64,000 nt of DNA from Candidatus Falkowbacteria bacterium RIFOXYA2_FULL_38_12 (GTDB lineage: Bacteria; Patescibacteriota; Patescibacteriia; XYB2-FULL-38-15). Positions 4,473 through 56,486 of this stretch are shown in pieces; the first letter of the stretch is position 1; each line of letters begins with the position of its first letter. The notes under the pieces are model-generated. The model searched no databases, had not been told where the DNA came from, and saw nothing but the letters and a program-made list of their open reading frames with translations. Both the position numbers and the translations under genes were made by a program. The stretch covers positions 75,805-139,804 of the forward strand of contig MFGA01000020.1 of assembly GCA_001778095.1 (NCBI GenBank), written 5' to 3'.

Positions 4473-4554
4473 AGAAAATTAAAAGTTAAAAATGAAAAGT
4501 TAAAAGTTAAAGATTATATAACTTTTCACTTTGCACTTTTAATTTCTCACTTCT

Positions 4555-4818
4555 ATGCATGATTTACACGAAGCTGATAGAATATTAAAGCTGGTCTTGG
4601 ACCATGCCGAAAGAAATAATTTTAAAAAAGTTACCAAAATCATTATAGGTCTTGGTAATATTATTGAGCACGGCTTGAATATTGATCCCGATAATTTAAA
4701 ATTTAATATTTCCATGTTGGCGCGAGAGACAAAAGCCGATGAAGCCGAAATTGTTGTGGAAAAAATAGATGGCGATACGTGGGAATTAAAAGAAATTGAG
4801 GGGGATAAAAATATATGA
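4555..4818 (+). CDS. HypA-like small protein lacking the zinc-finger cysteines (possible Ni-binding N-terminal domain only)
   Basis: 87 aa. N-terminal MHDLHE resembles the MHE Ni-binding motif of HypA, but there is no CxxC...CxxC. Position directly after the hydrogenase genes. Confidence 0.3.
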   Translation: MHDLHEADRILKLVLDHAERNNFKKVTKIIIGLGNIIEHGLNIDPDNLKFNISMLARETKADEAEIVVEKIDGDTWELKEIEGDKNI

Positions 4819-6029: not shown

Positions 6030-6086
6030 ACTGATAAACAAAGATAGAACATAAAATAACTATTTAAATCTTAAACAAACAAATCT

Positions 6087-6863: not shown

Positions 6864-7025
6864 ACCCGATGAATAATAATCTTTCGTTACGAAACGCAGT
6901 AATTTTAGGATAAAAATTTAGAAAAGCGACGATGTTTATATGATTAGATATAAGCGGAGGAGCTTTTGCAAATTTTTAGCCAAAATTACTAGTTGCAGTA
7001 GAAAGAATTATTATTCAGTGGGTCT
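6862..7025 (-). repeat. ~160-nt structured repeat, copy 1 (inverted orientation relative to copies 2 and 3)
   Basis: Internal ~120 nt nearly identical to the reverse complement of 40906..41064 and 57362..57520. Flanked by its own ~19-bp terminal inverted repeat. Abuts the gpmI start codon. Confidence 0.8.
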
Positions 7026-7037
7026 AATGAACAATTT

Positions 7038-8585
7038 ATGGAAAAGAAAAAAACAACAGCCCTTATTATTCTTGATGGATGGGGGCTTGCTCCGCCTGGT
7101 CAGGGAAACGCCGTTTCTCTTGCTAAAACTCCGACCATGTCAGAACTCTGGAAAAATTTTCCGCACACCGAACTTATCGCGCATGGAAAAAGGGTCGGGT
7201 TGCCGGGTAATCAAGAGGGAAATTCTGAAGCCGGTCATATGAACCTGTCTTCCGGTTTTATTGTTAAACAAGACGCGGTTTACATTAATGATAGTATTGA
7301 AGATGGAACTTTTTTCAAGAATAATGCCTTCGCTGAAGCGATAAGGCACGCTAAAAAATATAAGTCAAAAGTCCATTTGATGGGGCTTCTTTCTAATGGA
7401 GAAAGCGCTCATTCTTTTCCCACCCATCTTTATTCGCTTTTGGATCTTTTGCATCAGAATAAAGTTGGAGATGTTTTTCTGCATTTGTTTACAGATGGCC
7501 GAGATTCTGGTAGATTTGCCTCAATAAAGCTCCTTTCAAAATTAAGGACGCATTTTCACGGAAATGAGAGAATAGCTTCTATTATGGGTAGATTTTACGC
7601 AATGGATAGAGTAAAAAATTGGAAAAGAACAGAATTGGCCTATAATGCCATGGTATTGGGAGGGGAACTAATTGCCGAAAGCGCTGAGGCGGCAATTTCA
7701 ACAGCCTACAACAGGGGAGAAACGGATGAGTTTATTTTGCCAACAGTTATTTTTAAGGATCATGGAGCGACATCAAGGATAGATGATAATGATGCAGTTA
7801 TATTTTTTAACCTTCGTTCAGACAGGGCAAGGGAACTGACAAAAACAATTACTCAAGAAAATTTTAATGGAAAAAATGGAGGATCATTCAAAAGGGAAAA
7901 AGTCTTAAAGAACATTTGTTTTGTCGCCATGACCGATTTCGGTCCGGACTTGCCCGGGGTTATTACAGCTTTTCCCAGTCGCGATATTGAAAATAGTTTA
8001 CCTTCATGTTTAAAAGAGAAGAGACAAATATATATTGCCGAAACCGAGAAATATGCGCATGTTACTTATTTTTTTAACGGAGGATACGCAGATCCGATTT
8101 TTGGAGAAGAGAGAGTGAGAATACCATCGCCCAATGTTCCCAGATATGAAGATAAACCGGAAATGAGCGCGCCGGAGATTACTAAAAATGTAGAATCTTT
8201 TATTCATTCAGGAGTTTATGATTTCATTACGGTTAATTTTTGCAATCCGGATATGATCGGTCATACGGGTAATATAAAAGCGGGGATTAAAGCGGTTAAT
8301 GTAGTTGATATTTGTTTAAAGAGATTGATTAAGGAAATTTTCAGAAATAAAGGCGTCGCTATTGTTACCGCCGATCATGGAAACATTGAAGGGATGATAA
8401 ATCTAAAAACAGGAGAAATAGATACCGAGCATTCAACCAATCCGGTTCCGTTTATTGTCGCCGGAGAAAATTTTAAAAATAAAAAAATAAAAAAAGGGAT
8501 TTTGGCGGATGTCGCGCCAACCATTCTTGATATTATGGATCTTCCGAAACCGAAGACAATGACGAGAAAAAGCCTATTAAATTAA
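7038..8585 (+). CDS. gpmI: 2,3-bisphosphoglycerate-independent phosphoglycerate mutase
   Basis: 515 aa. N-terminal LIILDGWGLAPPG and metal-binding regions typical of iPGM. Confidence 0.9.
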   Translation: MEKKKTTALIILDGWGLAPPGQGNAVSLAKTPTMSELWKNFPHTELIAHGKRVGLPGNQEGNSEAGHMNLSSGFIVKQDAVYINDSIEDGTFFKNNAFAEAIRHAKKYKSKVHLMGLLSNGESAHSFPTHLYSLLDLLHQNKVGDVFLHLFTDGRDSGRFASIKLLSKLRTHFHGNERIASIMGRFYAMDRVKNWKRTELAYNAMVLGGELIAESAEAAISTAYNRGETDEFILPTVIFKDHGATSRIDDNDAVIFFNLRSDRARELTKTITQENFNGKNGGSFKREKVLKNICFVAMTDFGPDLPGVITAFPSRDIENSLPSCLKEKRQIYIAETEKYAHVTYFFNGGYADPIFGEERVRIPSPNVPRYEDKPEMSAPEITKNVESFIHSGVYDFITVNFCNPDMIGHTGNIKAGIKAVNVVDICLKRLIKEIFRNKGVAIVTADHGNIEGMINLKTGEIDTEHSTNPVPFIVAGENFKNKKIKKGILADVAPTILDIMDLPKPKTMTRKSLLN

Positions 8586-8624
8586 AAGTTTCCACCTCTG
8601 CCAAGGCTGCGGTGGGCAAGAAAA

Positions 8625-8700
8625 ATGTAAAGTGAAAAATTACAGTTAAAAGTCCAAAGTTAGAAAGACTTTTAACTTTTAATTTATCACTTTTAACTTA
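8625..8700. repeat. AT-rich palindromic AAAGTGAAAA/GTTAAAAGT element
   Basis: Imperfect hairpin built from AAAGTGAAAAATTACAGTTAAAAGT and the reverse-complement words ACTTTTAACTTTTAATTTATCACTTTTAACTT. Ends 4 nt before the GTG start of the second gpmI. Confidence 0.7.
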
Positions 8701-8704
8701 ATCT

Positions 8705-10279
8705 GTGCGTCCAAAACCAGTAATACTTATTATCCTTGATGGGTGGGGAATAGCGCCACCCGGTCCGGGCAACGCGATCGCTTTAGCCAGGACTCCGAAT
8801 ATAAGTAAGCTAATAAATAATTATTCGGCAATGACCCTTAGAGCCTCCGGTGATGAGGTTGGCTTATCGTGGGGAGAAATGGGAAATTCCGAAGTTGGCC
8901 ATTTAAATCTAGGTGTTGGCAGAATCTTTTATCAGACCTTGCCCAGAATAAATAAAGCCATTGACGGCGAGTCTTTTTTTGAAAGCAGTGTTTTAAAAGA
9001 GGCAACAGAACATATTAAAAAAAACAATTCGAGCCTCCACTTGATGGGTCTTTTGAGTTCCGGACGGGTTCACTCAACTATTGATCATCTCTTTTCTCTG
9101 CTAAAGTTTGCCAGGGATAATAAAATAAAAAAAGTTTTTATTCATGTCTTTTTGGATGGCCGAGATACTATTTATAATAGCGGAGCAGATTTTATTAAAA
9201 AGCTGGAAGAAAAGATAAAAGAATATCGCGTAGGGAAAATTGCCACACTCTCCGGACGTTTTTACGCGATGGATCGAGATAATCGTTGGGACAGAACGGA
9301 AAAAGCCTATCGGGCAATTGTTGAGGGAGTTAGTGATGAATCTTGCGATAGCGCGGAAAAAGCGGTTCAGCTGTCTTATGGCAAAGAAGTCTATGATGAG
9401 GAGTTTATTCCGATCATCATTACGGAAAAGGGACAGCCGGTAGCCAAAATTGAAAAAAATGACGCGGTTATCTTTTTTAATTACAGAGCGGACAGAGCGC
9501 GACAAATAACCAAGGCTTTTGTCGCGGATAATTTTGATAAATTTCAAAGAGAAAAAATAGATAATCTATTTTTTGCGACAATGACCGAATATGAAAAAGA
9601 TTTGCCGGTGAAAATTATTTTTCCGCCGGAAGAAATAAAAGTTTCGTTGGCAAAAGTGATCTCGGAGGCGGGATTAAAACAATTGCACATTGCCGAAACC
9701 GAGAAATACGCCCATGTGACATTTTTTTTCAATGGCATGAAGGAAGAAGAGTTTCCCGGGGAAACGCGCATTATAGTTCCTTCCCCAAAAGTTTCTTCTT
9801 ATGAAGAAAAACCGTCTATGTCTGCCCAAGAAATTACAGAAAAATTAATAAAAGAAGTAATGAGTCAAAAATATGATTTTATAGTCGCCAATTTTGCCAA
9901 CGCTGATATGGTCGGGCACACCGGAAATATGGAGGCAACCAAAGAGGCTATAGAAATGGTAGATAAATGTGTTGGAAAAATAGTCGATGTCGCCTTATCC
10001 GTAAACGGCGCTGTGGCTATAACCGCCGATCATGGCAATGCCGAGGAGCTGATGAATTTAGAAACATCGGAAATGGATAAAGAGCATAGTAATAATCCGG
10101 TTCCTTTTATCTTGATTCGAAAAGATGAAAAGGGTTCGGTAGCAGGAGGCGCGGGAAATGAAAATATTGACTTGAGTATGGCTTCTCCGGCCGGAATTTT
10201 AGCCGACGTTGCTCCAACAATTTTAAAAATTATGGAAATACAGAAGCCGGACGAAATGACGGGAGCGGAATTAATATAA
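8705..10279 (+). CDS. gpmI: 2,3-bisphosphoglycerate-independent phosphoglycerate mutase, second paralog
   Basis: 524 aa. GTG start. VILIILDGWGIAPPGPGNAI plus conserved iPGM core. Tandem to the first copy. Confidence 0.85.
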   Translation: MRPKPVILIILDGWGIAPPGPGNAIALARTPNISKLINNYSAMTLRASGDEVGLSWGEMGNSEVGHLNLGVGRIFYQTLPRINKAIDGESFFESSVLKEATEHIKKNNSSLHLMGLLSSGRVHSTIDHLFSLLKFARDNKIKKVFIHVFLDGRDTIYNSGADFIKKLEEKIKEYRVGKIATLSGRFYAMDRDNRWDRTEKAYRAIVEGVSDESCDSAEKAVQLSYGKEVYDEEFIPIIITEKGQPVAKIEKNDAVIFFNYRADRARQITKAFVADNFDKFQREKIDNLFFATMTEYEKDLPVKIIFPPEEIKVSLAKVISEAGLKQLHIAETEKYAHVTFFFNGMKEEEFPGETRIIVPSPKVSSYEEKPSMSAQEITEKLIKEVMSQKYDFIVANFANADMVGHTGNMEATKEAIEMVDKCVGKIVDVALSVNGAVAITADHGNAEELMNLETSEMDKEHSNNPVPFILIRKDEKGSVAGGAGNENIDLSMASPAGILADVAPTILKIMEIQKPDEMTGAELI

Positions 10280-42069: not shown

Positions 42070-43980
42070 ATGTTTAAAAAAAAGACAGCCTTAAAGTTTT
42101 TATTAGCCCTAGTTTTACTTGTGGGAGGTTTTTTGTTTGTCCAAAATGTTTTCGCTCAAGATATTGCCGGCATGGACATTGTGAACGAAAATATCGCTTT
42201 GTCCGCCGATGACCCAAGAATTATCGCCGCAAGGATTATTAGAATAGCTTTGGGATTTTTAGGAATAATAGCCGTCTGCATAGTCTTGTATGGAGGTTTT
42301 TTATGGATGACTTCAGCCGGCAATGAAGAAACTATTGGTAAGGCAAAAAAAGTTTTGATCAATGGATTGATCGGTTTGATCATAATTTTAATGGCTTTTG
42401 GCATTACCCAATTTGTTTTAAATTCTCTGCTTGGCAGGGTCGGGGGAGGAGCCGGCGGGGGAGGCGGGTCACCATTAATCGGGCGATATAGCGGAGCCTT
42501 GGGTAATGGAATTATTGAGAGTCATTATCCGCCACGCGGAGGGACGGGAATTCCACGTAATACAAAAATTATCGTGACATTCAAGGAAAAAATGTTACTT
42601 GAGTCTTTGGTTAACAATTATAATGATAACGGAACGCCGGACAATATTGCGGATGATGTGGTTACTAAAAATGACAATGGCACGCCCGGCAATCCAGCAG
42701 ATGATTGGATGGAAATCAATAGCGAGAATGTTAGAATCTTTAAATCAAGCGAAGGAGAACTTGGCACGGAGCGAGTCCCGAACTATTTATCATCAAGCCA
42801 GGTAAGGGTTTCCTTTACGGCTGATCTGAAAAATTTTGTTTTTGATCCGATTCCACTGCTTGGTAGTCCGACGGAAAATATTTGGTATACAACAGCCTTA
42901 AAGCCGGGCATAGAAAAATCAAACGGCGACAATGCTTTTGCCGGAGCTTTCCGTGACGGATATGCTTGGGATTTTGAAGTGAGCACGATTATTGACGTAA
43001 CTCCGCCACAAGTAGTCAGCGTTATTCCAAGAAAAGATTCTGTAAATCCGCGCAATATAAAAGTGCAAATAAATTTTAATGAAGCAATGGATCCGACAAC
43101 TGTTTCCGGAAGTACTTTTGGCGAGGAGGCTTTAAGATTTAATAATGTTTTAACCACTGATGCTCTTGATCGCGAGGTTGCCGGAACGTGGAGTATTGGT
43201 AATCAATATAAAACAATAGAATTTGTAACTAATGACAAGTGTGGGACAAATTCTTGTGGAGGCGATGTTTATTGTCTTCCGGGAGATGAAACAATCAGCG
43301 TTCTGGCCATTGCCGCAAGATTAGGGAGTAGTCCGCCGGAGGCCGAGATGCCTTATGACGGTATTGTTGATGTTTGCGGTAATTCTTTGGATGGAAATAG
43401 CAACGGCCGAGCCGAAGGACAGTCTCTGGAAGGGAGAAGCGCTATTGGTGGAGATAATTATTCATGGCTTTTTAAAACAAACGACACTATTGATTTAGTT
43501 CCGCCAACAATCAGCGCGGTTACTCCAATGCCGGAAACTGAAAGCGTGGCTTTCGCCGTTCCGGTAGAATTAACCTTTTCAAAATTAATGAGTATTACGA
43601 GTTTTACAACCAGCAATATTTCCTTTCAGGATAATCAACGCGATGAATGCGCGGTTTGGTTTTTTCTGGATGGCGACAATTTACAAGCGGACGGAGCTCC
43701 GGTTAGGGGATCTGATGATATCGCCATACGCACAAAAGCGAGAGTCAGTCATGAAAACTTATTGCCGACAGGTGGAGTTTGTTCTGACGATAGACCGGTA
43801 GAAGGACCGTTAGCAATGGATGGCGAGGGTTCATTGGTTTATTATTTTCCAGTTGCCAATTCGGATGTTCAAGATTTGTTTCAAAATTGTTTTTATAGAC
43901 CCATCGGACCGGCCGATGGTCAGACTTGCGTTGTTGGAAGAGATGGAAATTTGCCAGCTGACTGCGAGCCATGGAGATAA
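42070..43980 (+). CDS. secreted surface protein with VirB2/TrbC-pilin-like N-terminal anchor and Big_5-type Ig-like domains
   Basis: Signal peptide, then two hydrophobic helices separated by a short charged loop, then a poly-Gly linker. Repeated D.TPP.V....P........I...F.E.MDP.TV Ig-like modules. Confidence 0.6.
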   Translation: MFKKKTALKFLLALVLLVGGFLFVQNVFAQDIAGMDIVNENIALSADDPRIIAARIIRIALGFLGIIAVCIVLYGGFLWMTSAGNEETIGKAKKVLINGLIGLIIILMAFGITQFVLNSLLGRVGGGAGGGGGSPLIGRYSGALGNGIIESHYPPRGGTGIPRNTKIIVTFKEKMLLESLVNNYNDNGTPDNIADDVVTKNDNGTPGNPADDWMEINSENVRIFKSSEGELGTERVPNYLSSSQVRVSFTADLKNFVFDPIPLLGSPTENIWYTTALKPGIEKSNGDNAFAGAFRDGYAWDFEVSTIIDVTPPQVVSVIPRKDSVNPRNIKVQINFNEAMDPTTVSGSTFGEEALRFNNVLTTDALDREVAGTWSIGNQYKTIEFVTNDKCGTNSCGGDVYCLPGDETISVLAIAARLGSSPPEAEMPYDGIVDVCGNSLDGNSNGRAEGQSLEGRSAIGGDNYSWLFKTNDTIDLVPPTISAVTPMPETESVAFAVPVELTFSKLMSITSFTTSNISFQDNQRDECAVWFFLDGDNLQADGAPVRGSDDIAIRTKARVSHENLLPTGGVCSDDRPVEGPLAMDGEGSLVYYFPVANSDVQDLFQNCFYRPIGPADGQTCVVGRDGNLPADCEPWR

Positions 43981-44079: not shown

Positions 44080-47000
44080 TTGATGCTAAGCAAAAAGACA
44101 GCTCTAAAATTTACACTATCCCTCATCGTACTTATGGGAAGTCTTTTGTTTGTCCAAACGGTTTTTGCGCAAGATTTTGGGACTGATGTTGTCGGCGAAA
44201 ATATTGCTCTAGTGGATGCCGGTGATCCCAGAGTTGTCGCCGCAAGGATTATCAGAATAGCTTTGGGATTTTTGGGAATTATTGCTGTTTGCATAGTTTT
44301 GTATGGAGGCTTTTTATGGATGACTTCAGCCGGCAACGAAGAGACTCTTGGTAAGGCAAAAAAGGTTTTAACCAGCGGTTTGATCGGACTTATCATTATT
44401 TTAATGGCTTTTGGTATTACTCAATTTGTTTTGAGTAGATTGACAGAGGCAACAGGGGTTGATGGCGGAGGGGGTGGCGGAGGCGGCGGAGGGGGTGGCG
44501 GAGGCTTGCCTTCTGACGCTTTTTTAGTAAGAAGCATTCAGCCAAATGGCGCTATTCCCATTCGTAATGTCATTGTCAGAGTTCTTTTTAATAAAAACGT
44601 AAATGCAGATAGTCTAAGAGTGGCGGGAAATTTTGTAGTGCGTCGGGTTTCCGACAACACGCCAGTAGAAGGAATAATAAATCTAAATGGTAATCTTGCG
44701 GAATTTGTTCCCAATGCCGATTGTCCCGAACCAAATGCTGATAGAAAATGTTTTGATAGTGATACTGAATTTAGAGTGGAATTAGCTACTGGGATAAGAA
44801 GCGAGACTGGAAAGAGTTTGATGTGTGGAGGATTGGCTCCGTCTTGTCGTGGAACTTTCACAACTGGAAATTTGGTTGATGTTACCGGCCCCGAGGTTGA
44901 TGTTACTTTTCCTGATGATGGTCAGCCGGTGAGTGCCGACGCGATTATAAGTATTGAAGCGCATGCGATTGACGATGCGGGAATTTCTTATTTGGATTAT
45001 TTTGTTAATAACAACCTTTTGGGTCGGGACGCTCCGGAGGGGCCGACTGTTCGAGATTATTTTTCGGCTACCGATTGGGATACAACCGGAATAGCCTCGG
45101 GGACAAAATATAAATTAAAGGCCACAGCTTTTGATATTGATTCAAACAATACAAACTCAAACGGCGTAGGGGTGATTGTTAGAGCTGCGCATTGTTTTAA
45201 TGCGTTTAAAGATCTTGATGAGATCCAAGTTGATTGTGGCGGAGTTGATTGCGGTTTATGTGACGGCGGAGCTTGTGTTAATGATGATGAGTGTCGTAGT
45301 GGAATTTGTTTAAACGGAATTTGTCGGAGCTTGCCGGTTATCGCTAGGGTTGCTCCCAGCGATGGCGCAGTAGGAAATTTTATAACAATATTTGGCGAGC
45401 ATTTTGGCAATGTTCACGGTTCGGTTTATTTTCAGGATCACATCGAAGGCAATTTGCCGAGAGGTTGTGTAGTTGGAGACGTTTGGCAGGATAGACAAAT
45501 TATCGTTGAGGTCCCGGCAGGAGCATTGGACGGGCCGATTTCCGTTGTTATTCCTCCACCGGACGGAGCGCTAGCTTCAGACTATACGGACAGGACGAAT
45601 GATGAACGAGGTCCGTTGTTGCCTGATTTTGACGTGAATGAAATTGAACGTCCGGGAATTTGCGCAATTAATCCGAAAGAAGGAGAACCAAAAGCTGAAG
45701 TGAGGGTTTTGGGAACTCATTTTGGTGACCAGCAGGGAGACAGTTTGATTAATTTTGGAGGGACAAGAGCCGAAAGAATTTTGGATTGGGGAGAATCAAG
45801 TATTAGGGCAACAGTTCCCTTGATAGCCCCGGCGGTTGTTCCCGTTCAAGTAGTAAAAGATGAAGAAAATAGCAATCCTATTAATTTTACCGTTCTTCAA
45901 TCTGCCGCGACTCCAAAAATTTTAAGTTTCTCTCCGACAAAAGGGCCGGAAGGGGAATATATAACCATTTTAGGTTCAAGTTTCGGCGACACTCCCGGTA
46001 AAGTTGATTTTGTTGCGCCGGACGGAACAATTTATTTGGCGGCAACTGATTTTCCGGAGGTCTGCGGAGCTAATTGGTGGAAAGATGACGCAGTGATTAT
46101 TAAAATACCGAAAGAAGCAAGGATTATTCTTCCCGGGCCAAAATATACTTTAAAATTAACGGCAAATAGCGGCCTTGTTGATGATACTTCGGATTTAACA
46201 CCGGCAACTCTCGAAATTATTGGCGGGGCGCCAAAACCGGGAATTTGTCGTATTTTTCCGGACAACGGACCGGCTGGTCTTGAGGTTGCAATTGATGGGG
46301 AAAGATTGGGGTTGAGAGGAATTTTAAATTTTTGGAGAAATAAGGTTGCTCTAACAAATTCGTGGAAAGTGGATCAGGTTGTTGGAGTCGTGCCAGTCGG
46401 ATCAGAAACCGGGCCAATCAATGTTTCGGTCGGCGATAATTTAAGCAATAATGTAAATTTTAACGTTCGCGATTGTCGCGACGCGAGAACGCCATGCGGA
46501 GAAGGAGAAGAATGTTGTCGGGATGGATCATGTCGAGCGGATGGAGAATGCGCGGAAGCGCCGGGTAGCGGACATTATTTTTGGCGTTTTTCCACCGGTG
46601 AGCTACCAATAAATCCCAGAGTGGTGGAATATTGCGGTCCGGCTGATGAACCAAGAAGATTAAACCCGTCACCTTCACCTTGGAATAAAAGAGAAGGTGG
46701 AAACAATGTTTGCATTAATGCCAGGATCACGGCCAGATTTAATGTAAAAATGAACAATGAATCATTGACAACACATGGGAATATTGTTGTGGAAGAATGT
46801 GCCGGTCCTGACGCGGAAAATCCTTGTCTTGAAAAAAGAGTAGTTGAGGGAGAAATTAATCCTTTAGTTGTAAATGATGCTCTTTTACCAAGAGGAATTG
46901 GATCAGATTCATTTGAGTTTGTTTTGCCAGCGGGCATTCTATTTGAACAAAATAAAGTTTATCAAGTTACTTTAAAAGGTGGTTCATTTGAAGATCCCGG

Positions 47001-50000
47001 ACTTGCAAGTGTTGCCGGGTTGCTTTTAGACGGAGATAAAGACGGAGAAGAGGGTGGAGATTATATTTTTGAATTTAAAACAAGGAATACTGATGAGTTG
47101 TGCGAAATAGGTTCAATCGGAATCATGCCTCCAATCGCAACACTGACTGAACAATGGATAGAAGATGAAGAAATTGTCGGATCAGAATTGGAGTATACCG
47201 GTTTGTGCTATGCAGAGGGGGATATATGTTTAACTCTAAATTGTAGAAACTATGATTGGAGATGGAAATCATCTGACGATCCGTTAAATCCAAAGGTTTC
47301 ATTGCTGGAAGTGGAAGATGATGAAGGCGAAGTGATTGAAGAGAAGGCACTTGTCAGGGCAGTAGCGGAGACAGATATAAACCCCGCGACTGGTCTAAGT
47401 CAACCAGTAATAATAACTGGCGCGATCCCAGTTGAAAGAAAGTCTGGAGAGGGAGATTTAACTATTAGTTTTACAGATCCAAAAGTAATTGAAAAATGGC
47501 CTGATTGTCGAGAGGCCTGCAAGAATTCGGAAGTAGGCGTTAAATTTAATACATGGATGGATGAAGAAATTGCCGGCGATCCTCAAAATATAAAGTTATA
47601 TATCTGGCGTTGCGGTAATAGTGTTATTGATCATGGCGAAGATTGTGATGACGGAAATATTGTTTCCGGCGATGGTTGCAGTAGTAGTTGTCTAAATGAG
47701 GGAACAAAACTTTGTCTCGAATTTGATCCGGCCGTCAGAGAAGTATCGGTCGAGGATTCTTGTTGCGGAAATGGACGGCGCGATCCGGGCGAAGATTGCG
47801 ATGGTAATCCTTTTCCGGCGAATTGCCGAGTAGATGGATTGGCTGACAATTGTCTTAATGAAGGAACGGCTGTGATCGGCGACGGTGGAAGTTGTGGTAA
47901 TAGTATAGTTGAAGAAGGTGAAGATTGCGATCCGCCGGATCTTGCTTTGCCACCGGGAAGTCGTGGGTGTAGCGTGGAATGTTTGAATCAAGGGACTTCC
48001 GGACTATTTCCGGCGCCCGGAGGTATTGTCGGAGTTTTACCTCGATATTCTTCAGTAAGCCTAAGCGAAGGGAAATGGGAACACAAACTGAATTTTGATT
48101 TTCCTGTCGGTTTTTCTCTTCTTCCTAATACTTGGTATAGGGCGGTAGTTTCGGGAGCTCAAAAAAGCGTTAGCGGAGTTGCTCTCACGGAATTGAATTA
48201 TGACGATATACCTGACGAAAGACATTCTTTAGATTCATATTCTTGGGCGTTTAGAACCAAAAGCGATGATTCTTTATGCGCTGTTGATAAAATTGAAGTG
48301 AGCCCGAGGGAAGCGCGGGTTAGATTTATTGGAGCAAAAGTTGATTTTAGGTCAATGCCTTTTGGCGCGCCGGATGAATGTAGCCCTAATGGCCAGAAAT
48401 TGAGAGCGATGAGCTATCCTTGGGTTTGGAATTCAACAGTAGAGGAAGTGGGAACTCTTCCGGCTCCTCGTTCCGATAGATTCCCCGGTTGTGGCAATGG
48501 TGTTGTGGAATTTGGTGAAGATTGCGACGATGGAAATATACTTCCGGGTGATGGTTGCGCCGGGCCGGGAGATAACGCCTGCTTAAATGAGGGTGAGAGC
48601 GCGTGCGCCTTTGGAGAAGGTATGTGTATAGTAGATAAACGTTGTATTTGGAATGAAGCTGATGGAGGAAGATGTATTAAAAAAACTATCTGCGGAAATA
48701 GAGCAGTAGAGATAGGCGAAGATTGCGATGATGGAGATAGAGATTCGGGAGACGGATGCAATAATAAATGTTTGAATGAGGGGTCAGTCGCCGGAGGATC
48801 TGTCTGTGGAGATATGAAGATTGGTATTGGTGAAGACTGCGATGACGGAAATACTCGATCGGGAGATGGATGCAGTAATCTTTGTTTGAATGAAGGGACT
48901 ATTCTTGACAGAAGAATTGATCCTCTGCAAACAGTAACGGCAAAGGGGCTAAGAGTTGATCATGCTCGCGAGGACACTACGGCAATAAGCGCTGAAACAG
49001 ATGGAAAAAAAGGTGAGGGCAATTTTACTTTAGCTTGCAGTTATAATCTACCGGACAATCCTTGCCCGGAAGACGACGAAAGGGGTGATATTTATGGAAT
49101 TGGTAATAATTCTTGCTGTTATCCAAAGCCAATTATTGAAACCTGTAATCCGTCAGGCGCGGCTATTTGTTCCAATAAACCGGAAGGGGAAGCGGTTTGT
49201 CGCAATTCTTTAATCTCAATAACTTTTGATAAAGAAATGGATCCGGCCTCACTGGAAGAAAATATTATTGTCGCTGGCAATTATAATGTTTGCCCGGAAG
49301 GAACGATTGACGTTGGTAATGGCGATATCAGACTTCGTGAATTTATAAATTGGTGCGCGGTAACGGGAGGAATTACCGTTAGTCAAATTGTTCCGGAAGA
49401 AGGCGAAAAAAAGACAAGAGTTGATTTTAATTTATCCAAACTTTTGGATCCGAGCATAAAATATAAAGTTATTGTTCGCGGGAATAATTTATTGACTCGA
49501 GATAGAGTAGAGGGAGCAAGGAGTATTAACGGAGTGGAGCTGGGAGAGACTAATTTTACTTTTAGAGAAGGGGAGGCGAGTTATCAAAGCAGGAGCTGGA
49601 CTTTTTGGACAAACGATCAAATTTGCGCCCTGTCTTCAGTTAAAATAAATCCCGAAAGTCATCTTTTTACCAGCAGTTTGGATCCGGAAAATCGGGCTGA
49701 TTTTATAGCAACCGCCTTGGATGCAAGAAATAATCCTATTTCGTCAATTCCCGGATCTTATTCTTGGAGATGGGATTGGACTTCAAGTTATATTGACATA
49801 GCCGCTCTTTCTCTTTGCGCTGATCCAAACGGATGTAGCACAAGAACCGTGACGGCGCAAAATCAAAACGGAGAATCATTAATTTCCGCCAAAGCGACGA
49901 TAACAGCAGATGAAGAAGTCCCGGGCGCAAGAGGTCAAAGCAAGTTTGGCATTTCCAATGTCGCTGTTTTTCTTTGCGAAAATCCTTGGCCAACAGCGGC

Positions 50001-53000
50001 AACAATAAGAGAGGACGGAGGATATCTTGATCGTAATTATAATTTCAAATTTTACTATTGCCGAGACAAAGGGGAATTTTTGCCTGACGATGATCTACCC
50101 TGTTTTCCCTCGGCGGAAGTGGGCGGAGCGATTGCCGTAAGGGATACCGAGAGAATCGGCGTATTAAGAGAAGATGGTTTGTTGAGAGAATATTTATTTA
50201 CGTTTCCGGGAACATTTTATTGTAGTGTTTCACAAACTTTATGCGATCCTGCCGCCCTTCCTGACGCTCTGGGTTTCTGTCCTGCCGGAACCGGAGATTG
50301 CCGACCGGCCCCGGATGCCATTGGTATTAGAATTTACGAAAACGTTAATCATCTAACTCCGACCGAATGGTATGGAAAGCAAGGATTAGCTGTGGGAAGT
50401 CCGGAGACAATTAATATTGACGGCTATGAAGCAATACGAGATGGTCGGACAGTCTATATTTCGGCGGCCAATGACACGATGGGTCCGGACACTCTTTATA
50501 CAAATATTTATTTGGTCTCTTATAACGACGGAGCTAATTCGGATACAATAAATATCTATAATCAGATAATACAAAATTTAAAATTTAATACTAATTTGAG
50601 AAATGCGGATCTGCGGGCATGTCTTTACAGGGCTTGCAGTAATAATGCCAGCAAAAGTTGCAATATGGATGCAGACTGTCGCGCGGAGCCTGACGTTACT
50701 TCAACTTGTTTGCCTTTATCTTATTGCACTAAAGATATGGATTGTCCGCCGGCGGTTCCGGTTGCGGGAACAATTAACGAATGTCAAGCGCCAAAAGATA
50801 AATTAACCAGAGACATGAGGAGGATTATTGACCTTAATAATCTAAAAAGAGTAATAGATTCTTATAAAACTGTTCATGGAAGCTATCCAAAACTGGAAGC
50901 GGGAACTTATATCAGATCATTGGTCTCCAGCGTTTGGGGTTCTTGGATCGGGGCGTTGGGCAAAGACTTAGGCGCATCATTACCCGTTGATCCGATCAAC
51001 AAAATTGTTAATTGCGAGGGGGCGGGTTTTGATAAGGAAACATGTTGGAATCTAGAATCAAAAACGTATCAATGTCCGGCCGGTTCGCATGTTTATCAAT
51101 ATAAAGTGAACGGAGACGGGACATATAAATTAAAGAGTGATTTTGAGTATAGGGCAAACGATCGCCTCGTTGATCTAAAAACGCTATGGGTAGGAAATTT
51201 ATCTAATGTGTTTGAAATACAAGGATCTTGCGATGGCGCTCCCATAAGAAGCACCGGCGTTTGCGGAGATGGAAATATAGACGGTCCCGAGGAATGCGAG
51301 CCGAGAGCTAATCCCCCGCGAGACAGGGCGTGTACACTTGAGATTGATGGAGAAGAAGTGGCTGGCAGACAAAGAGAAGAGTGTAACCCAGCTGACTGCA
51401 CTTGGCGCGAGCTAGGTGGCTGTTCGGTTCTCTGTGGGGATGGCATTCGCCAAGTGGGTGAAGAATGTGACGAAGGGCCTCTGGGCGGACGAATAGCTGG
51501 TGGAGGAATGTCTCCGGAAAATCAGTATTTTTGTACTAGAGAATGTGAAATGATGGGAGGTTATTGTGGTGATGGAGGAGAACCACAGGTAGCTTATGGA
51601 GAAAGATGCGATAATGGAGTTTCTTGCACGTTAAGGTTGCCTTGTGCAAGTGTGGATGGATGTGTCTGTGGATCTTGTATAGTTCCTAGGGGAAAGAAAA
51701 GCTGTGGAAATGGATCTTACGGATTGAGCGTTAGTGGAGAACCTTGGTGCAAAACAGATTGTTCGGGCTTCGGTCCATATTGCGGAGATGAGGTTGTAAA
51801 TGGAGCTGAACAATGTGATGGAGATTCTATTACTTCAAAAGGAATTTGTGTTCCAGAAGGAATACCAGAACTAAACGATGTGGATACGGTTCTTGGAAGT
51901 TATACCTCATGTAACAACAATGAAGATTGTTCGGACGGTACTTGTGTTATTTGTGATAATTCTAGAGAAGGTTATTCTCAATCAAGAACGAAAAACTGTG
52001 GAGAGTTGGGGGTACCAGGGTTAGCTCTTCTATGTGACTGGAATAGATGGGGCGCTTGCGAGACGGCAGGTACTTGCGGAAATGGGACAAAAGAAGGGGA
52101 CGAGGAATGTGATGATGGAAATGAAAATAATAATGATGGTTGTATTATCACCTTGGAAAATTCTCCATCGGGTCCTGATAATTGCAAACTAGCTCGTTGT
52201 GGAGATGGATTTACTAAGATTGGTGCAGAAGCCTGTGACGTCGGCGTAGGCAATGGCAGGATTTGCAGGGCAAACTATGGTGAAAATTGTAATTATTGCG
52301 ATGTTAATTGCGCTATAAAAGTTATTACCGGACCTCGTTGCGGAGATGGAATAATAAATGGAAGAGAGACATGCGATGATCGAGCGGGAACTAGTTTGTT
52401 ATATAAAATAATTGAGGAACAAAAATATTTTGCTGATAATCGTGGCGATAGTTTAGGAGTAGTTGTTCCCGTGAGTATGGATTCGGCCTGCTCAATAGAC
52501 AGCGCTCTTCCGGGCATAGATGGTTCCTGCCCGGGGCAACCGCCAACAGGAGCACTGAAATTTAATCGGGCGGTTTGTTCAGCGGATTGCGCTTCAACTT
52601 GTCCCCCGGCTTATAAAATACAAACATTAACCTTTGGTCCGGAAGGACGAAGTTCAATTGAATTAGGAAGTAACGAGGAGGTCTCAGTTAATCTTCCCGC
52701 TTGTCGTGTTTTGGGTGACATTAAAGTTGATGTTGATTTGAGTAATGTTACTCAAACTCCGTTGAATGTGGTTTTTGTGACGGATAGATCGGGGAGTATG
52801 GGGTGGGGAACAACATCAAGTTCTGGACCAAATCTTTCTTGCAGTGAAGACAGAACGAGGATGGGTTGTGCTAGAGATGCGCTTACGGAAGCAATAAATT
52901 TATTATTTGATAGTTATGAAAATATTCGCATTGGCTTGGTAAGTTATGGTAATAATGTCCCGGTTGGTGCATGGCATGACTTGCTGGGTTTTTTAGGGAA

Positions 53001-53658
53001 AGACATATTAATTTCCGCAGTTGGTTCCTATACTCCGACTTTAGGTGCTACTAACATTTCCGCTGGGGTAAAGAAGGCAAAAGATATATTAAACAATGAA
53101 GATGGTAAAAAAATAATTGTTTTAATGAGTGATGGAGAAGCGACGAGACCTCATGAAACCCCAGCGCTAAGAGCAGTTTATCCTGCTTGTGATAGATATA
53201 GTAGAGACGATTTTGCCGCATGCGTTGCAGGAGAAGAGGTTAGATTGGCTAAAGGTAGAGATATAGAAATTTACACAATTTTATTTTATGGTCCCACATC
53301 CGCAGAAGCTAATATGGAGAGTTGGGCAAGTTCTCCCACGGAGCCTTACGCTAACATAAGCGCTCCCGATAATGACTTGGATGAAATTTATCGTTCTATT
53401 ATAGCCTCTCTAACATCCTCAAGTATAAATTTAAATTTACAAGAAACCGGAGGTGTGCGAGGGGGTGCAGAGATACCTCTTTTAAGAAGTATCTTTTGTA
53501 AGGAAGAAGAACAAACAGATATTCCCTTTAGTATAGATTTTGGCGGGATAGGCAAGGCGCGTGTAAGTAATCTAAAAGCTTATATATGCCCTGGCCCGCC
53601 GTATCCACCCGAAGATCTTTGGGAATGTGTCGGAGACTCTTGCGATGTGAGTCTATAG
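44080..53658 (+). CDS. giant (3192 aa) cell-surface protein: pilin-like N-terminal anchor, poly-Gly linker, IPT/TIG and Ig-like domains, ~12 cysteine-rich (GEDCDDGN...GDGC) repeats, embedded pseudopilin-like segment, C-terminal vWA domain
   Basis: N-terminal 125 aa ~85-90% identical to the 42070 protein. Four IPT-like modules (ITIFGEHFG, VRVLGTHFG, ITILGSSFG, VAIDGERLG). Repeats CGN..GEDCDDGN...GDGC..C of the Myxococcus-type cysteine-rich repeat. vWA MIDAS VVFVTDRSGSM and IIVLMSDGEAT. Confidence 0.7.
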   Translation: MMLSKKTALKFTLSLIVLMGSLLFVQTVFAQDFGTDVVGENIALVDAGDPRVVAARIIRIALGFLGIIAVCIVLYGGFLWMTSAGNEETLGKAKKVLTSGLIGLIIILMAFGITQFVLSRLTEATGVDGGGGGGGGGGGGGGLPSDAFLVRSIQPNGAIPIRNVIVRVLFNKNVNADSLRVAGNFVVRRVSDNTPVEGIINLNGNLAEFVPNADCPEPNADRKCFDSDTEFRVELATGIRSETGKSLMCGGLAPSCRGTFTTGNLVDVTGPEVDVTFPDDGQPVSADAIISIEAHAIDDAGISYLDYFVNNNLLGRDAPEGPTVRDYFSATDWDTTGIASGTKYKLKATAFDIDSNNTNSNGVGVIVRAAHCFNAFKDLDEIQVDCGGVDCGLCDGGACVNDDECRSGICLNGICRSLPVIARVAPSDGAVGNFITIFGEHFGNVHGSVYFQDHIEGNLPRGCVVGDVWQDRQIIVEVPAGALDGPISVVIPPPDGALASDYTDRTNDERGPLLPDFDVNEIERPGICAINPKEGEPKAEVRVLGTHFGDQQGDSLINFGGTRAERILDWGESSIRATVPLIAPAVVPVQVVKDEENSNPINFTVLQSAATPKILSFSPTKGPEGEYITILGSSFGDTPGKVDFVAPDGTIYLAATDFPEVCGANWWKDDAVIIKIPKEARIILPGPKYTLKLTANSGLVDDTSDLTPATLEIIGGAPKPGICRIFPDNGPAGLEVAIDGERLGLRGILNFWRNKVALTNSWKVDQVVGVVPVGSETGPINVSVGDNLSNNVNFNVRDCRDARTPCGEGEECCRDGSCRADGECAEAPGSGHYFWRFSTGELPINPRVVEYCGPADEPRRLNPSPSPWNKREGGNNVCINARITARFNVKMNNESLTTHGNIVVEECAGPDAENPCLEKRVVEGEINPLVVNDALLPRGIGSDSFEFVLPAGILFEQNKVYQVTLKGGSFEDPGLASVAGLLLDGDKDGEEGGDYIFEFKTRNTDELCEIGSIGIMPPIATLTEQWIEDEEIVGSELEYTGLCYAEGDICLTLNCRNYDWRWKSSDDPLNPKVSLLEVEDDEGEVIEEKALVRAVAETDINPATGLSQPVIITGAIPVERKSGEGDLTISFTDPKVIEKWPDCREACKNSEVGVKFNTWMDEEIAGDPQNIKLYIWRCGNSVIDHGEDCDDGNIVSGDGCSSSCLNEGTKLCLEFDPAVREVSVEDSCCGNGRRDPGEDCDGNPFPANCRVDGLADNCLNEGTAVIGDGGSCGNSIVEEGEDCDPPDLALPPGSRGCSVECLNQGTSGLFPAPGGIVGVLPRYSSVSLSEGKWEHKLNFDFPVGFSLLPNTWYRAVVSGAQKSVSGVALTELNYDDIPDERHSLDSYSWAFRTKSDDSLCAVDKIEVSPREARVRFIGAKVDFRSMPFGAPDECSPNGQKLRAMSYPWVWNSTVEEVGTLPAPRSDRFPGCGNGVVEFGEDCDDGNILPGDGCAGPGDNACLNEGESACAFGEGMCIVDKRCIWNEADGGRCIKKTICGNRAVEIGEDCDDGDRDSGDGCNNKCLNEGSVAGGSVCGDMKIGIGEDCDDGNTRSGDGCSNLCLNEGTILDRRIDPLQTVTAKGLRVDHAREDTTAISAETDGKKGEGNFTLACSYNLPDNPCPEDDERGDIYGIGNNSCCYPKPIIETCNPSGAAICSNKPEGEAVCRNSLISITFDKEMDPASLEENIIVAGNYNVCPEGTIDVGNGDIRLREFINWCAVTGGITVSQIVPEEGEKKTRVDFNLSKLLDPSIKYKVIVRGNNLLTRDRVEGARSINGVELGETNFTFREGEASYQSRSWTFWTNDQICALSSVKINPESHLFTSSLDPENRADFIATALDARNNPISSIPGSYSWRWDWTSSYIDIAALSLCADPNGCSTRTVTAQNQNGESLISAKATITADEEVPGARGQSKFGISNVAVFLCENPWPTAATIREDGGYLDRNYNFKFYYCRDKGEFLPDDDLPCFPSAEVGGAIAVRDTERIGVLREDGLLREYLFTFPGTFYCSVSQTLCDPAALPDALGFCPAGTGDCRPAPDAIGIRIYENVNHLTPTEWYGKQGLAVGSPETINIDGYEAIRDGRTVYISAANDTMGPDTLYTNIYLVSYNDGANSDTINIYNQIIQNLKFNTNLRNADLRACLYRACSNNASKSCNMDADCRAEPDVTSTCLPLSYCTKDMDCPPAVPVAGTINECQAPKDKLTRDMRRIIDLNNLKRVIDSYKTVHGSYPKLEAGTYIRSLVSSVWGSWIGALGKDLGASLPVDPINKIVNCEGAGFDKETCWNLESKTYQCPAGSHVYQYKVNGDGTYKLKSDFEYRANDRLVDLKTLWVGNLSNVFEIQGSCDGAPIRSTGVCGDGNIDGPEECEPRANPPRDRACTLEIDGEEVAGRQREECNPADCTWRELGGCSVLCGDGIRQVGEECDEGPLGGRIAGGGMSPENQYFCTRECEMMGGYCGDGGEPQVAYGERCDNGVSCTLRLPCASVDGCVCGSCIVPRGKKSCGNGSYGLSVSGEPWCKTDCSGFGPYCGDEVVNGAEQCDGDSITSKGICVPEGIPELNDVDTVLGSYTSCNNNEDCSDGTCVICDNSREGYSQSRTKNCGELGVPGLALLCDWNRWGACETAGTCGNGTKEGDEECDDGNENNNDGCIITLENSPSGPDNCKLARCGDGFTKIGAEACDVGVGNGRICRANYGENCNYCDVNCAIKVITGPRCGDGIINGRETCDDRAGTSLLYKIIEEQKYFADNRGDSLGVVVPVSMDSACSIDSALPGIDGSCPGQPPTGALKFNRAVCSADCASTCPPAYKIQTLTFGPEGRSSIELGSNEEVSVNLPACRVLGDIKVDVDLSNVTQTPLNVVFVTDRSGSMGWGTTSSSGPNLSCSEDRTRMGCARDALTEAINLLFDSYENIRIGLVSYGNNVPVGAWHDLLGFLGKDILISAVGSYTPTLGATNISAGVKKAKDILNNEDGKKIIVLMSDGEATRPHETPALRAVYPACDRYSRDDFAACVAGEEVRLAKGRDIEIYTILFYGPTSAEANMESWASSPTEPYANISAPDNDLDEIYRSIIASLTSSSINLNLQETGGVRGGAEIPLLRSIFCKEEEQTDIPFSIDFGGIGKARVSNLKAYICPGPPYPPEDLWECVGDSCDVSL
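44464..44505 (+). repeat. perfect 21-bp tandem duplication encoding a poly-Gly linker
   Basis: ggcggagggggtggcggaggc x2, inside the giant gene (15-residue Gly run). Confidence 0.8.
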
Positions 53659-53685: not shown

Positions 53686-54495
53686 ATGCAAAAAAATACA
53701 AAAATTATTATCGCATTCTTGGTTGGAGCTTTGATTTTATTTGGAGTCGCTTTTGGTTTTTGGTATTCAAAACAAAAAAATAACACTGAAAATTTGCCAG
53801 AAAATCAAGAAAAAATAGTGGAAGAAGTCCCGGAAAATAAAACATTTGAATTGGCAAGAATAGAAAAAGAAAAAAGTAAATGCGCGGAAAATGGAGAAGA
53901 GGGATGTGGAGACAATGTTTTAATTATGGAAGCAATAAATGATTTAAAAGTGGAAGCATGCAACGAAGTCGTGGATGAAAAAGCGAGAAATAATTGCATT
54001 ACGGAAATTGCCATTCGCCAAAATGATGAAAAAAGTTGCGATCTCCACAAAGACGAGGCGGAAAAAAATACTTGTTTGAGTTTGATCTTGGGAAATAAAG
54101 CCAGAGAGAGCGATGATATGGCAGTTTGTCTTGCGGTTCCCGGCGAAAGTTATAGAGATTCTTGCTTTTTTAGCATTGTGAATAAAAAAAATGACGCAAA
54201 ATATTGCGACGAGCTGGGAGAGCTAAGAGATAAATGCTTGAATATAATTTTGACCAATAAGGCTTTTGAAGAGGGCGACACAAGTTTTTGCGATAATATT
54301 ACAGACGCCGATTCGCGAGAAAGTTGTTCGGCGGAATTGGGCGGGACGGATTCTGATAATGATGGTCTAAGTAATTCCGACGAAGAAAAATACGGAACTG
54401 ATCCCAAAGATCCGGATAGTGACGGGGATAGTTATCTTGATGGGGCGGAAGTGGAAGCGGGGTATAATCCGAAGGGAGCGGGGAAATTGGAGTAA
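53686..54495 (+). CDS. TM-anchored Cys-rich secreted protein with C-terminal thrombospondin-type-3-like Ca-binding repeats
   Basis: N-terminal TM helix. Regularly spaced Cys pairs. C-terminal DSDNDGLSNSDEE...DPDSDGDSYLDGAEVEAGYNPKGAGKLE. Confidence 0.5.
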   Translation: MQKNTKIIIAFLVGALILFGVAFGFWYSKQKNNTENLPENQEKIVEEVPENKTFELARIEKEKSKCAENGEEGCGDNVLIMEAINDLKVEACNEVVDEKARNNCITEIAIRQNDEKSCDLHKDEAEKNTCLSLILGNKARESDDMAVCLAVPGESYRDSCFFSIVNKKNDAKYCDELGELRDKCLNIILTNKAFEEGDTSFCDNITDADSRESCSAELGGTDSDNDGLSNSDEEKYGTDPKDPDSDGDSYLDGAEVEAGYNPKGAGKLE

Positions 54496-54571: not shown

Positions 54572-55270
54572 ATGTTTGACCAACAACCAGACGACATGTT
54601 TGCCGGAACTGAGCCGGCGAAACAACAAACCTTAAATCCAAATCAAAGGCCGGCTGGCCCCGTCGCGGCCGTAAAGCCAATCTCTCCCACCCCTAATTCA
54701 ATGCCAGTAAATCCCGCTCCTTCACCGATTTCTCGAGATATGTTGGGTGATGAAGAGCCTCAAATTGGCGGAGGTAATAAAAAAGTTTTTTTAGGCATTA
54801 TCGCAGTGGTAGTCGTTTTAATTCTAGGAATTGGCGGATATTTTTTGTGGAGACAGTTATCAACCCCCACTACGCAAGTTTTGGAGAATGGTCCTATTAA
54901 TACTGTTCCCCCGATTACTACGCCCGAAGAGCCGGTTGCGCCGGAAGAAATTGAAGAACCAATCGGTGGTTTGTCCGGCAATGAAATTTCTCCGGACGAA
55001 GCAGTGGCGGATGTAGACACAGATATGGATGGTATTATAGACGACGAAGAACTTAATCTAGGTACGAATCCGATGAAAGTTGATTCTGATGATGACGGAT
55101 TGACTGACAGGGAAGAAGCAAAAATATACAAAACAGATCCATTAAATCCGGATACTGACGGAGATACTTATGGAGATGGACAAGAAGTTAGAGGCGGATA
55201 TAATCCAAACGGTTCAGGAAAGCTTTATGAATTGCCGGTGAATAACGTGGAGAGCGAAGTAGTTGAATAA
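54572..55270 (+). CDS. TM-anchored Pro-rich protein with C-terminal thrombospondin-type-3-like repeats
   Basis: TM helix. DTDMDGIIDDEE...DSDDDGLTDREE...DPLNPDTDGDTYGDGQEVRGGYNPNGSGKL. Confidence 0.5.
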   Translation: MFDQQPDDMFAGTEPAKQQTLNPNQRPAGPVAAVKPISPTPNSMPVNPAPSPISRDMLGDEEPQIGGGNKKVFLGIIAVVVVLILGIGGYFLWRQLSTPTTQVLENGPINTVPPITTPEEPVAPEEIEEPIGGLSGNEISPDEAVADVDTDMDGIIDDEELNLGTNPMKVDSDDDGLTDREEAKIYKTDPLNPDTDGDTYGDGQEVRGGYNPNGSGKLYELPVNNVESEVVE

Positions 55271-55433: not shown

Positions 55434-56486
55434 ATGTTTGGAATTGGAAAAAAATCAGCCACGCCGGTTATTGATCCCGAAGGAATTGCCATAAAGGTGA
55501 TGCCCGAGGAGTTTTATTCTAAAAAAGGTAGTATGAGTCGGCCGGCTAGCGAAGAGCCAAGAACGGCGAGTATTTTGCCCCCACCCATTCCTTCTCCCGC
55601 GAGTCCCGTCTCTGCCCCGTTTGATCCCAACAGGCAACAACTTGCTACCCCGCGAGAGAAACCAACGTTGATTATTGTTTTGATTGCCGTGGCAGTCCTT
55701 TTGATTGGTGGCGCTATTTTTCTTTTTATCCAAAGCTTGAATATAGGAAAAGAACCGGTTAAAAGCGAGCCCATTGTTGAAGAAGAGCCAATAAAAGAAC
55801 CTCCGGCTCCTCCCGCTCCTATTTGTGGCGATGGGCAATGCGAAGATGACGAGAATTCAATAAGTTGTCTTTCCGATTGTCCGCTTCCGCCAGAACCAGA
55901 ACCCGTGGCTCCGGTTATTTTGCCAATGGCTCCCGACAGTGACGGAGATGGATTAACGAGTATGGAGGAAGAACTTTTTGGAGTAAGTGGCGAAAATTCG
56001 GACACGGATAGTGATGGTTATAAAGATGGGTTGGAAGTAATTAATTTGTATAATCCTTCGGGCTTTGCCCCTCAAAAAATAGAAGAAACAAAGCTAGTTG
56101 AAATTTATAAAAACCCAACATACAATTTTCAAGTTTTCTATCCGAAGAATTGGTTAGCCGGAGCTCTTAATGAAACCAACGAGGAAATAATGATCACGTC
56201 AGCAACGGGAGAATTTATTCAAATTATTGTTGTCGAAAATAAGGAAGGATTAGCTCTAATGGATTGGTATCTCGAAAAAGCGCCGGAGGTAAAACCGGCA
56301 GACGTGGGAACGGCTGCGACGAAAAACGGATTATTCGGTATTAAAACCCCGGATGAGTTGACGGCATATTTTAGTATCGGAGAAAAAATATTTGCTATCA
56401 GTTATAATGTTGGAGTAAAAACAGAATTAAACTATAAAAGCACTTTTGAAATGATTATAAGAAGTTTTAAAGTCAATGTTCGGTAA
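55434..56486 (+). CDS. TM-anchored Pro-rich protein with thrombospondin-type-3-like repeats and C-terminal globular domain
   Basis: TM helix. CGDGQCEDDENSISCLSDC. DSDGDGLTSMEEE...DTDSDGYKDGLEVINLYNPSG. Additional ~150-aa C-terminal domain. Confidence 0.5.
   Translation: MFGIGKKSATPVIDPEGIAIKVMPEEFYSKKGSMSRPASEEPRTASILPPPIPSPASPVSAPFDPNRQQLATPREKPTLIIVLIAVAVLLIGGAIFLFIQSLNIGKEPVKSEPIVEEEPIKEPPAPPAPICGDGQCEDDENSISCLSDCPLPPEPEPVAPVILPMAPDSDGDGLTSMEEELFGVSGENSDTDSDGYKDGLEVINLYNPSGFAPQKIEETKLVEIYKNPTYNFQVFYPKNWLAGALNETNEEIMITSATGEFIQIIVVENKEGLALMDWYLEKAPEVKPADVGTAATKNGLFGIKTPDELTAYFSIGEKIFAISYNVGVKTELNYKSTFEMIIRSFKVNVR

Follow-up and report, generated by a model that had tools for sequence, protein, structure and literature searches.

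How does a segment carrying the motifs of GspG, the major pseudopilin of the type II secretion system (T2SS), come to lie deep inside a surface protein of more than 3,000 residues, and what does it do there? The question is raised by a giant open reading frame (ORF) in a 64,000-nucleotide stretch of Candidatus Falkowbacteria bacterium RIFOXYA2_FULL_38_12 (contig MFGA01000020.1, positions 75,805 to 139,804; the whole stretch is hereafter called the window), whose preliminary description flagged nucleotides 50815-51190 and proposed for the encoded segment polymer-like or pilus-tip interactions. The segment is not a pilin. In the reading preferred here, to which a probability of roughly 0.55 can be assigned, it belongs to a pilin-derived, non-polymerising module that would act as the base or adaptor joining a variable adhesin to a stalk, with the genes of stalk and module protein fused in this genome.

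The flagged nucleotides lie in frame in the giant ORF and encode the peptide quoted in the preliminary description (MRRIIDLNNLKRVIDSYKTVHGSYPKL...LGASLPVDPINKIV...HVYQYKVNGDGTYKLKSDFEY), but the modelled domain (~50785-51159) starts and ends about 30 nt earlier; residues of the giant protein are numbered throughout from position 44080. The 165-aa segment alone, used as query in a word-indexed homologue search, retrieved nothing, while widening the query to 600 aa brought up 70 proteins of Patescibacteria, nearly all of which match residues ~2077-2358 of the giant in BLAST mapping with their own residues ~35-325, just behind the N-terminus. The consensus of the flagged block is 'KAKItRD.kRl.dL.ei..AL..Y....G.YP.L.AGTYl...t.SvWPSWq..L...Lg..LPvDPiNklg.C.g.d..TCWn...k.F...p..S..Y.Y', and 12 of its positions (D14, R17, P39, W55, S57, W58, D73, N76, C81, T90, C91, and Y110) are invariant in an alignment of 51 sequences, called A1. 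With this alignment as input, AlphaFold2 returned a confident model of residues 2232-2372 with a pilin-like fold (predicted local distance difference test score, pLDDT, 88.5; predicted template modelling score, pTM, 0.80), in which a helix of 31 residues is accompanied by a short strand, another helix, and a small sheet. The first helix (residues 2236-2266) is the counterpart of pilin alpha1C, and the arrangement typical of the globular head of type IV pilins, an amphipathic alpha1C on an antiparallel beta-sheet, is found in the model.

The likeness to GspG can be followed beyond the fold. When the 51 members were scanned individually, T2SSG (PF08334), the profile named for comparison in the preliminary description, was the Pfam family matched by most of them (11/51, best E 1e-3), and the GspG model TIGR01710 was the commonest NCBIfam match (6/51, best E 0.0076, below the family cut-off). 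All the T2SSG scores remain below the cut-off, however, and the segment of the window itself, whose aa 19-57 align with profile positions 16-52, obtains 13.2 bits (E 0.099) against a cut-off of 21. For profile-profile comparison, 25 genuine GspG proteins carrying both PF07963 and PF08334 were aligned; all are real database proteins. The hhalign comparison of A1 with this set gave a score of 35.1 (probability 73-75%, P 2.6e-5 to 3.1e-5), to be compared with a maximum of 17.5 (P 0.039) for 30 column-shuffled GspG alignments and 10.8 for the reversed one. In a greedier setting, ungapped extension puts LPVDPIN on the LPQDPWG of GspG, and the spacing from YP to LP.DP is 32 residues in the module family and in GspG alike; the 13-residue Cys-bridged loop after LP.DP (C2312-C2322) is an insertion relative to GspG. 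The profile of the segment family found only a spurious sarcosine oxidase (E 1.6) among all PDB sequences, and Foldseek gave no match at E<1 against the PDB. Taken together, the family scans, hhalign, and the shuffled and reversed controls make a remote but genuine relation of the segment to GspG-type pilin heads probable; the profile-profile similarity is suggestive of remote homology and not of family membership. The pilin motifs noticed in the segment at the outset are confirmed by their conservation in the 51 sequences and by an hhalign score above that of the shuffled controls.

According to the alignment of homologues, the flagged segment is one half, the C-terminal one, of a larger conserved unit, a module made up of a first lobe, a Cys-rich linker of variable length, and the flagged block; the pilin-fold lobe is always preceded by the other two elements. 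The consensus of the first block is 'DAIAVRVIPNPNHYS..WY..QGF.GSPQ.L.VDGYEAIRDGRTVYVNAAN...YTNIYLISYNQ...WKFNTN'. This lobe is similar in fold to PsbP/Mog1/LpqN-like proteins, its structural neighbours being LpqN, DcrB, MTC28, and PsbP. A profile of the flagged block, run with HMMER against 1.84 billion cluster representatives (50% identity), matched 1,595 proteins at E<=1e-3, of which 1,360 also pass E<=1e-10 and ~235 lie between the two thresholds; the best 150 of the 1,595 are all family members, and in each of them the domain is found in the first ~550 residues, usually at ~150-300. The ~1,600 module-bearing clusters are nearly all from Patescibacteria, and relatives of the module occur in 227 GTDB species, one genome per species having been scanned, mostly labelled Candidatus Falkowbacteria, Patescibacteria group, Uhrbacteria, Kuenenbacteria, and Parcubacteria. 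The module is therefore widespread and unannotated, without any Pfam or NCBIfam model; in particular, residues 1750-2896 of the giant matched no Pfam or NCBIfam family at normal thresholds in scans of the flagged segment and of the whole protein. The C-terminal remainder, in contrast to the module, differs from one protein to another and contains Ig-like, He_PIG, Big_9, PKD, or MopE-type domains, DUF4215 Cys-rich repeats, or VWA.

The position of the module in its relatives accounts for the place of the segment in the giant. In 71 of 77 fetched loci, the module begins 27-124 residues from the ORF start, directly behind a Sec signal peptide; it is internal in the other six, which include the two closest relatives (ORFs of 3,119 and 3,063 aa, module at aa 1964 and 1987). 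To judge from L009/L010, L011, L040, and L081, fusion may have occurred in three or more lineages. The common form is split: a secreted, Cys-rich module protein of ~1,000 aa is encoded directly downstream of the gene for an Ig-like stalk of ~2,000 aa with a VirB2-like anchor. In 44 of the 77 loci, a homologue of the giant's VirB2-like anchor is encoded upstream in the same orientation, and in 52 an ORF of 600-2,319 aa ends just upstream of the module gene. The locus of P0017 (L004), a 982-aa protein with signal peptide, module, and variable part, exemplifies this form: a VirB2-like + Big_5 protein (898 aa), a VirB2-like + TIG + Big_5 protein (1,940 aa), P0017, a small ORF, a TSP3-repeat protein and, further on, a 344-aa protein. 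The same order surrounds P0022 and P0008 and is common to L004, L005, L007, and L008. In the window, the order is VirB2-like + Big_5 protein, giant, two TSP3 proteins, 350-aa protein, YbeY, and DAGK. BLAST matches residues 27-132, 422-850, and 1661-2006 of the giant to the 1,940-aa stalk protein and residues 2078-2358 to residues 39-326 of P0017, while each neighbour matches its counterpart. Since the giant is collinear with the stalk protein plus P0017 and the neighbours agree, it is, on this comparison, a stalk gene fused with a module gene, here and in a few relatives. The junction itself can be read: the split-type stalk ends in 'NPWP...YNYKFYYCRD...' followed by two fn3 domains, whereas in the fused protein 'NPWP...YNFKFYYCRD...LREYLF' runs straight into 'DAIGIRIYEN', with neither the two fn3 domains nor the signal peptide in between. 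The location of the pilin-fold domain deep inside a protein of about 3,000 residues, which had seemed unusual, is thus real, and its oddity disappears: the fusion of two genes has placed the domain ~2,240 residues from the start of a protein of 3,191 aa.

Two further possibilities concerning the fusion were considered and rejected. The giant ORF is not an assembly error or a frameshift, as 14 contigs from at least three assemblies encode the identical 3,191-aa product and fused ORFs of 3,119 and 3,063 aa exist in two other species. The idea that the stalk C-terminus is a dedicated docking domain for the module found no specific support, as it consists of two generic fn3 domains.

These data can be combined in a model in which the pilin-derived globular domain, an alpha1C-like helix on a small beta-sheet with the motifs 'DL..L..AL..Y....G.YP' and 'LP.DP', forms with the PsbP/LpqN-like lobe and the Cys-rich linker one rigid, highly conserved extracellular module. 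In most Patescibacteria, the module directly follows the Sec signal peptide of a secreted protein, with the stalk held in the membrane by its VirB2-like hairpin; the fusion has dropped the two terminal fn3 domains of the stalk and the signal peptide of the module protein. The module would then be the constant base by which the variable distal part, the adhesin, is positioned on the stalk or joined to it, non-covalently where the genes are split and covalently in the giant, and the result would be a surface fibre for attachment. Proteins whose genes become fused tend to work in concert. For this reason, and because the module stays constant in front of variable tails, it likely serves as a non-polymerising structural or docking element.

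A different proposal is that the domain still acts as a pilin, by copolymerising with, capping, or docking onto a type IV pilus or a T2SS pseudopilus. The fold and the GspG-like motifs speak for it, as do the prepilin peptidase and minor pilins encoded elsewhere in the genomes of relatives and the existence of modular pilins with vWA modules (PMC8179133); it is nevertheless very unlikely. A prepilin motif (class III signal peptide, Gly-1, Phe/Met+1, Glu+5) is absent from all six frames of the window, and a hydropathy scan of the giant, in which the only hydrophobic segments are residues 8-30, 52-84, and 95-121, shows no hydrophobic alpha1N (~25 residues) before the pilin-fold helix, which is preceded instead by a hydrophilic Cys-rich linker. 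The preliminary description was right to report the hydrophobic N-terminal helix as missing. Having lost its class III signal peptide as well as alpha1N, the hydrophobic helix, the domain cannot be assembled into a type IV filament. Export also differs, being directed by a Sec signal peptide or taking place within a VirB2-like-anchored protein: the N-termini of the homologues are ordinary Sec signal peptides ending in ..AQ or ..A, not prepilin leaders, and in a hydropathy scan the signal peptide is their only hydrophobic segment, with no C-terminal anchor. Genes for pilus or T2SS assembly (PilB/GspE ATPase, PilC/GspF, prepilin peptidase, other pilins) are lacking in the cluster of the window and in those of L004-L008, where the neighbourhood conserved between loci encodes stalk and TSP3 proteins instead; in ~1 Mb of flanks of 85 loci, five prepilin-type N-termini were found, all minor-pilin-like and none resembling the domain. 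The suggested polymer-like or pilus-tip interaction consequently finds no support in assembly features or in nearby pilus genes.

It is unlikely, if somewhat less so, that the likeness is a generic one or due to convergence, with 'G.YP' arising by chance in a helix-on-sheet domain that has no evolutionary tie to pilins; the comparison with GspG, with its shuffled and reversed controls, argues for a true relation. More weight, though still doubtful, can be given to the proposal that the two lobes form a functional head binding a ligand such as a host envelope lipid, a glycan, or a peptidoglycan fragment, the variable C-terminal domains being accessory; the module would then bind a receptor and would not be an adaptor. 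Across the ~1,600 clusters, many positions with polar or aromatic residues hardly vary, the neighbours of the N-terminal lobe (LpqN, DcrB, MTC28, and PsbP) are envelope proteins that bind ligands or partners, and LamG/CBM insertions of lectin type occur in the inter-lobe linker. On the other hand, the stalk-proximal position of the module and its retention after fusion suit a structural role at least equally, and the adhesin-type domains (VWA, Ig, and MopE) lie distal to it. The adaptor reading is thus retained, and the features on which it draws are listed in Table 1.

Table 1. Features of the giant ORF and of its neighbours in the window (positions in the window; residues counted from 44080).
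Feature	Position	Strand	Description
636-aa paralogous protein	42070..43980	+	Cluster partner; VirB2-like anchor (PF18895 23.3 bits, cut-off 26.6) + Big_5; homologous to g898 of L004
Giant ORF	44080/44083..53658	+	3,191 aa from ATG 44083; TTG at 44080 (3,192 aa)
Giant N-terminus, aa 1-135	44080..44484	+	Signal peptide and two-transmembrane (two-TM) VirB2-like (T4SS_pilin) membrane anchor, then poly-Gly
Fusion junction, aa ~1996-2073	50065..50298	+	'CENPWP...YNFKFYYCRD...LREYLF'; matches split-stalk region before two terminal fn3 domains and stop
N-terminal lobe, aa ~2081-2166	50320..50577	+	'DAIGIRIYEN...DGYEAIRDGRTVYISAAN...YTNIYLVSYN...LKFNTN'; PsbP/Mog1/LpqN/DcrB-like beta-sheet fold
Cys-rich inter-lobe linker, aa ~2167-2235	50578..50784	+	Alignment gaps; pLDDT 56-77
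Pilin-fold lobe, aa ~2236-2360	50785..51159	+	AlphaFold2 model: helix 2236-2266, short strand, helix 2287-2297, Cys2312-Cys2322 loop, strands 2339-2343 and 2349-2354
GspG-similarity core, aa 2247-2276	50818..50907	+	RRIIDLNNLKRVIDSYKTVHGSYPKLEAGT; hhalign 30 columns, 33% identity
Variable distal part	51196..53655	+	Cys-rich acidic repeats, then VWA; Pfam DUF4215, VWA, VWA_2; NCBIfam TIGR02232
VWA domain, aa 2896-3102	52765-53385	+	Pfam VWA, VWA_2
TSP3-repeat protein	53686-54495	+	Cluster partner downstream of giant
TSP3-repeat protein	54572-55270	+	Cluster partner downstream of giant
350-aa protein	55434-56486	+	Cluster partner; weak PsbP_2 match

The window is AT-rich (GC 35-44%), gene-dense, and strongly biased towards the + strand. 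The anchor of the giant scores 18.8 bits against Pfam PF18895 (aa 60-117, gathering cut-off 26.6) and 28.9 bits against NCBIfam NF045849 (cut-off 40), and shares 51% identity with its counterpart in the 1,940-aa stalk protein of L004; the stalk homologues in L004, L007, and L008 have precomputed PF18895 hits. Small hairpins of this type, which resemble conjugative pilins, appear to be used for tethering 600-3,000 aa of Ig-like extracellular domains to the membrane. In the giant, the hairpin is followed by 13 consecutive Gly residues. The Pfam and NCBIfam domains recognised in this protein are Big_7, four TIG, the Cys-rich acidic repeats (DUF4215/TIGR02232), Big_5, and a C-terminal VWA. Downstream, the partners between 53686 and 56486 are syntenic with the genes that follow the module gene in L004, L006, and L007, so that the TSP3 and 350-aa proteins probably belong to the same surface-protein cluster.

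At L006, which has the same housekeeping context as the window, an RVT_1 reverse transcriptase and bAvd, the hallmarks of a diversity-generating retroelement, are found just upstream of the locus (3278-4670, 5631-10001 region), and ~4.4 kb without a called gene precede the module protein fragment P0003; this gene-free stretch may be a disrupted giant gene or a target of the retroelement.

Variation within the module family deserves mention. The giant has WGSW (50950-50961, aa 2286-2289), with Gly where more than 90% of the family has the Pro of a near-invariant WPSW, and in its sub-clade (P0002, P0003, P0018, P0051, and P0070) the family ending '..lCAvmES' is replaced by 'F.CP.GS.VY.Y...L.A.FEY'. 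Because of the change in WGSW and the replaced ending, the fused and near-fused proteins are, at the level of sequence, a distinct subfamily. Domains of ~200 aa, concanavalin/LamG-like or CBM-like, are inserted in the linker of P0100, P0101, P0105, P0123, P0143, P0046, and P0050, and LamG-like or CBM-like insertions are found inside the first (PsbP-like) lobe of P0140 and P0177; the module is tolerant of large lectin-type insertions at fixed points. Eight split-type proteins (P0012, P0032, P0035, P0036, P0037, P0048, P0062, and P0064) share the extreme C-terminal motif C(T/I)F(T/P)F.(F/L)PC.F(P/Q), which may be a sorting or attachment signal and which the giant lacks. As regards taxonomy, a Patescibacteria-type locus is carried by records titled 'uncultured Gammaproteobacteria bacterium isolate binchicken_...' or 'SRP..._co...' (L010, L012-L014, L016, L017, and many others), and also by records titled 'Bacillota' (L028) and 'Proteobacteria' (L075); the organism labels of these metagenome-assembled genomes look unreliable.

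The ultra-small Patescibacteria, or candidate phyla radiation (CPR), depend on attachment to host cells, yet apart from type IV pili only a small number of their surface structures are understood. The module represents a large family without a Pfam or NCBIfam model, located in a conserved cluster for very large VirB2-like-anchored surface proteins, and shows by example how a pilin fold, apparently freed from filament assembly, can be put to use as an ordinary extracellular domain. The natural fusion predicts which two proteins work together, and the module provides a handle for annotation and for structural and cryo-electron tomography work on CPR surfaces. A broader and only tentative proposal is that a pilin head exapted from a type IV filament system became, with the PsbP-like lobe, the conserved adaptor of an undescribed Sec-dependent surface fibre of Patescibacteria, composed of a VirB2-like-anchored stalk, a module protein with a hypervariable adhesin, and calcium-binding TSP3 partners, sometimes fused into more than 3,000 aa; if so, such a fibre could be a main host-attachment device of these episymbionts.

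No published description of the module, or of fused pilin-like domains in CPR surface proteins, was found in the literature. What is new is the combination of PsbP-like and pilin-like lobes in one module, its lineage-specific gene fusion, and the occurrence of a pilin fold in a non-filament, Sec-exported setting. The single elements can be compared with known systems. Proteins of PsbP/Mog1/LpqN/DcrB-like fold (PDB 3lyd, 6e5d, 4pws, 6e8a, and 2xb3) share 4-10% identity with the N-terminal lobe and no sequence-family match; unlike them, this lobe is always coupled to a pilin-fold lobe. As regards the anchor, and not the flagged segment, VirB2-like pilins of Patescibacteria (PF18895) have been catalogued (PMC12102498), and the giant and its upstream neighbour begin as they do with a signal peptide and a two-TM hairpin; those pilins are small, whereas here the hairpin bears extracellular domains of 600 to 3,000 aa.

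The closest known family in sequence and structure is the T2SS major pseudopilin GspG/PulG/EpsG (PF08334, TIGR01710). With respect to it, the module has no class III signal peptide, N-methylated Phe, Glu5, or hydrophobic alpha1N, has the 13-residue disulfide loop (C2312-C2322) after LP.DP, belongs to a multidomain Sec-exported protein encoded away from T2SS and type IV pilus genes, and scores below the family cut-offs. In architecture, the nearest analogue is PilB of Streptococcus sanguinis, in which a pilin module is combined with a vWA module; PilB retains both its prepilin leader and alpha1N and polymerises into pili (PMC8179133). As in PilB, the pilin-fold module is N-terminal to adhesin-type modules, and in the giant a VWA domain is C-terminal to the pilin-fold domain; in contrast to PilB, the pilin lobe is 'headless', with neither leader nor alpha1N, follows a PsbP-like lobe, and is either Sec-secreted or fused to a VirB2-like-anchored stalk.

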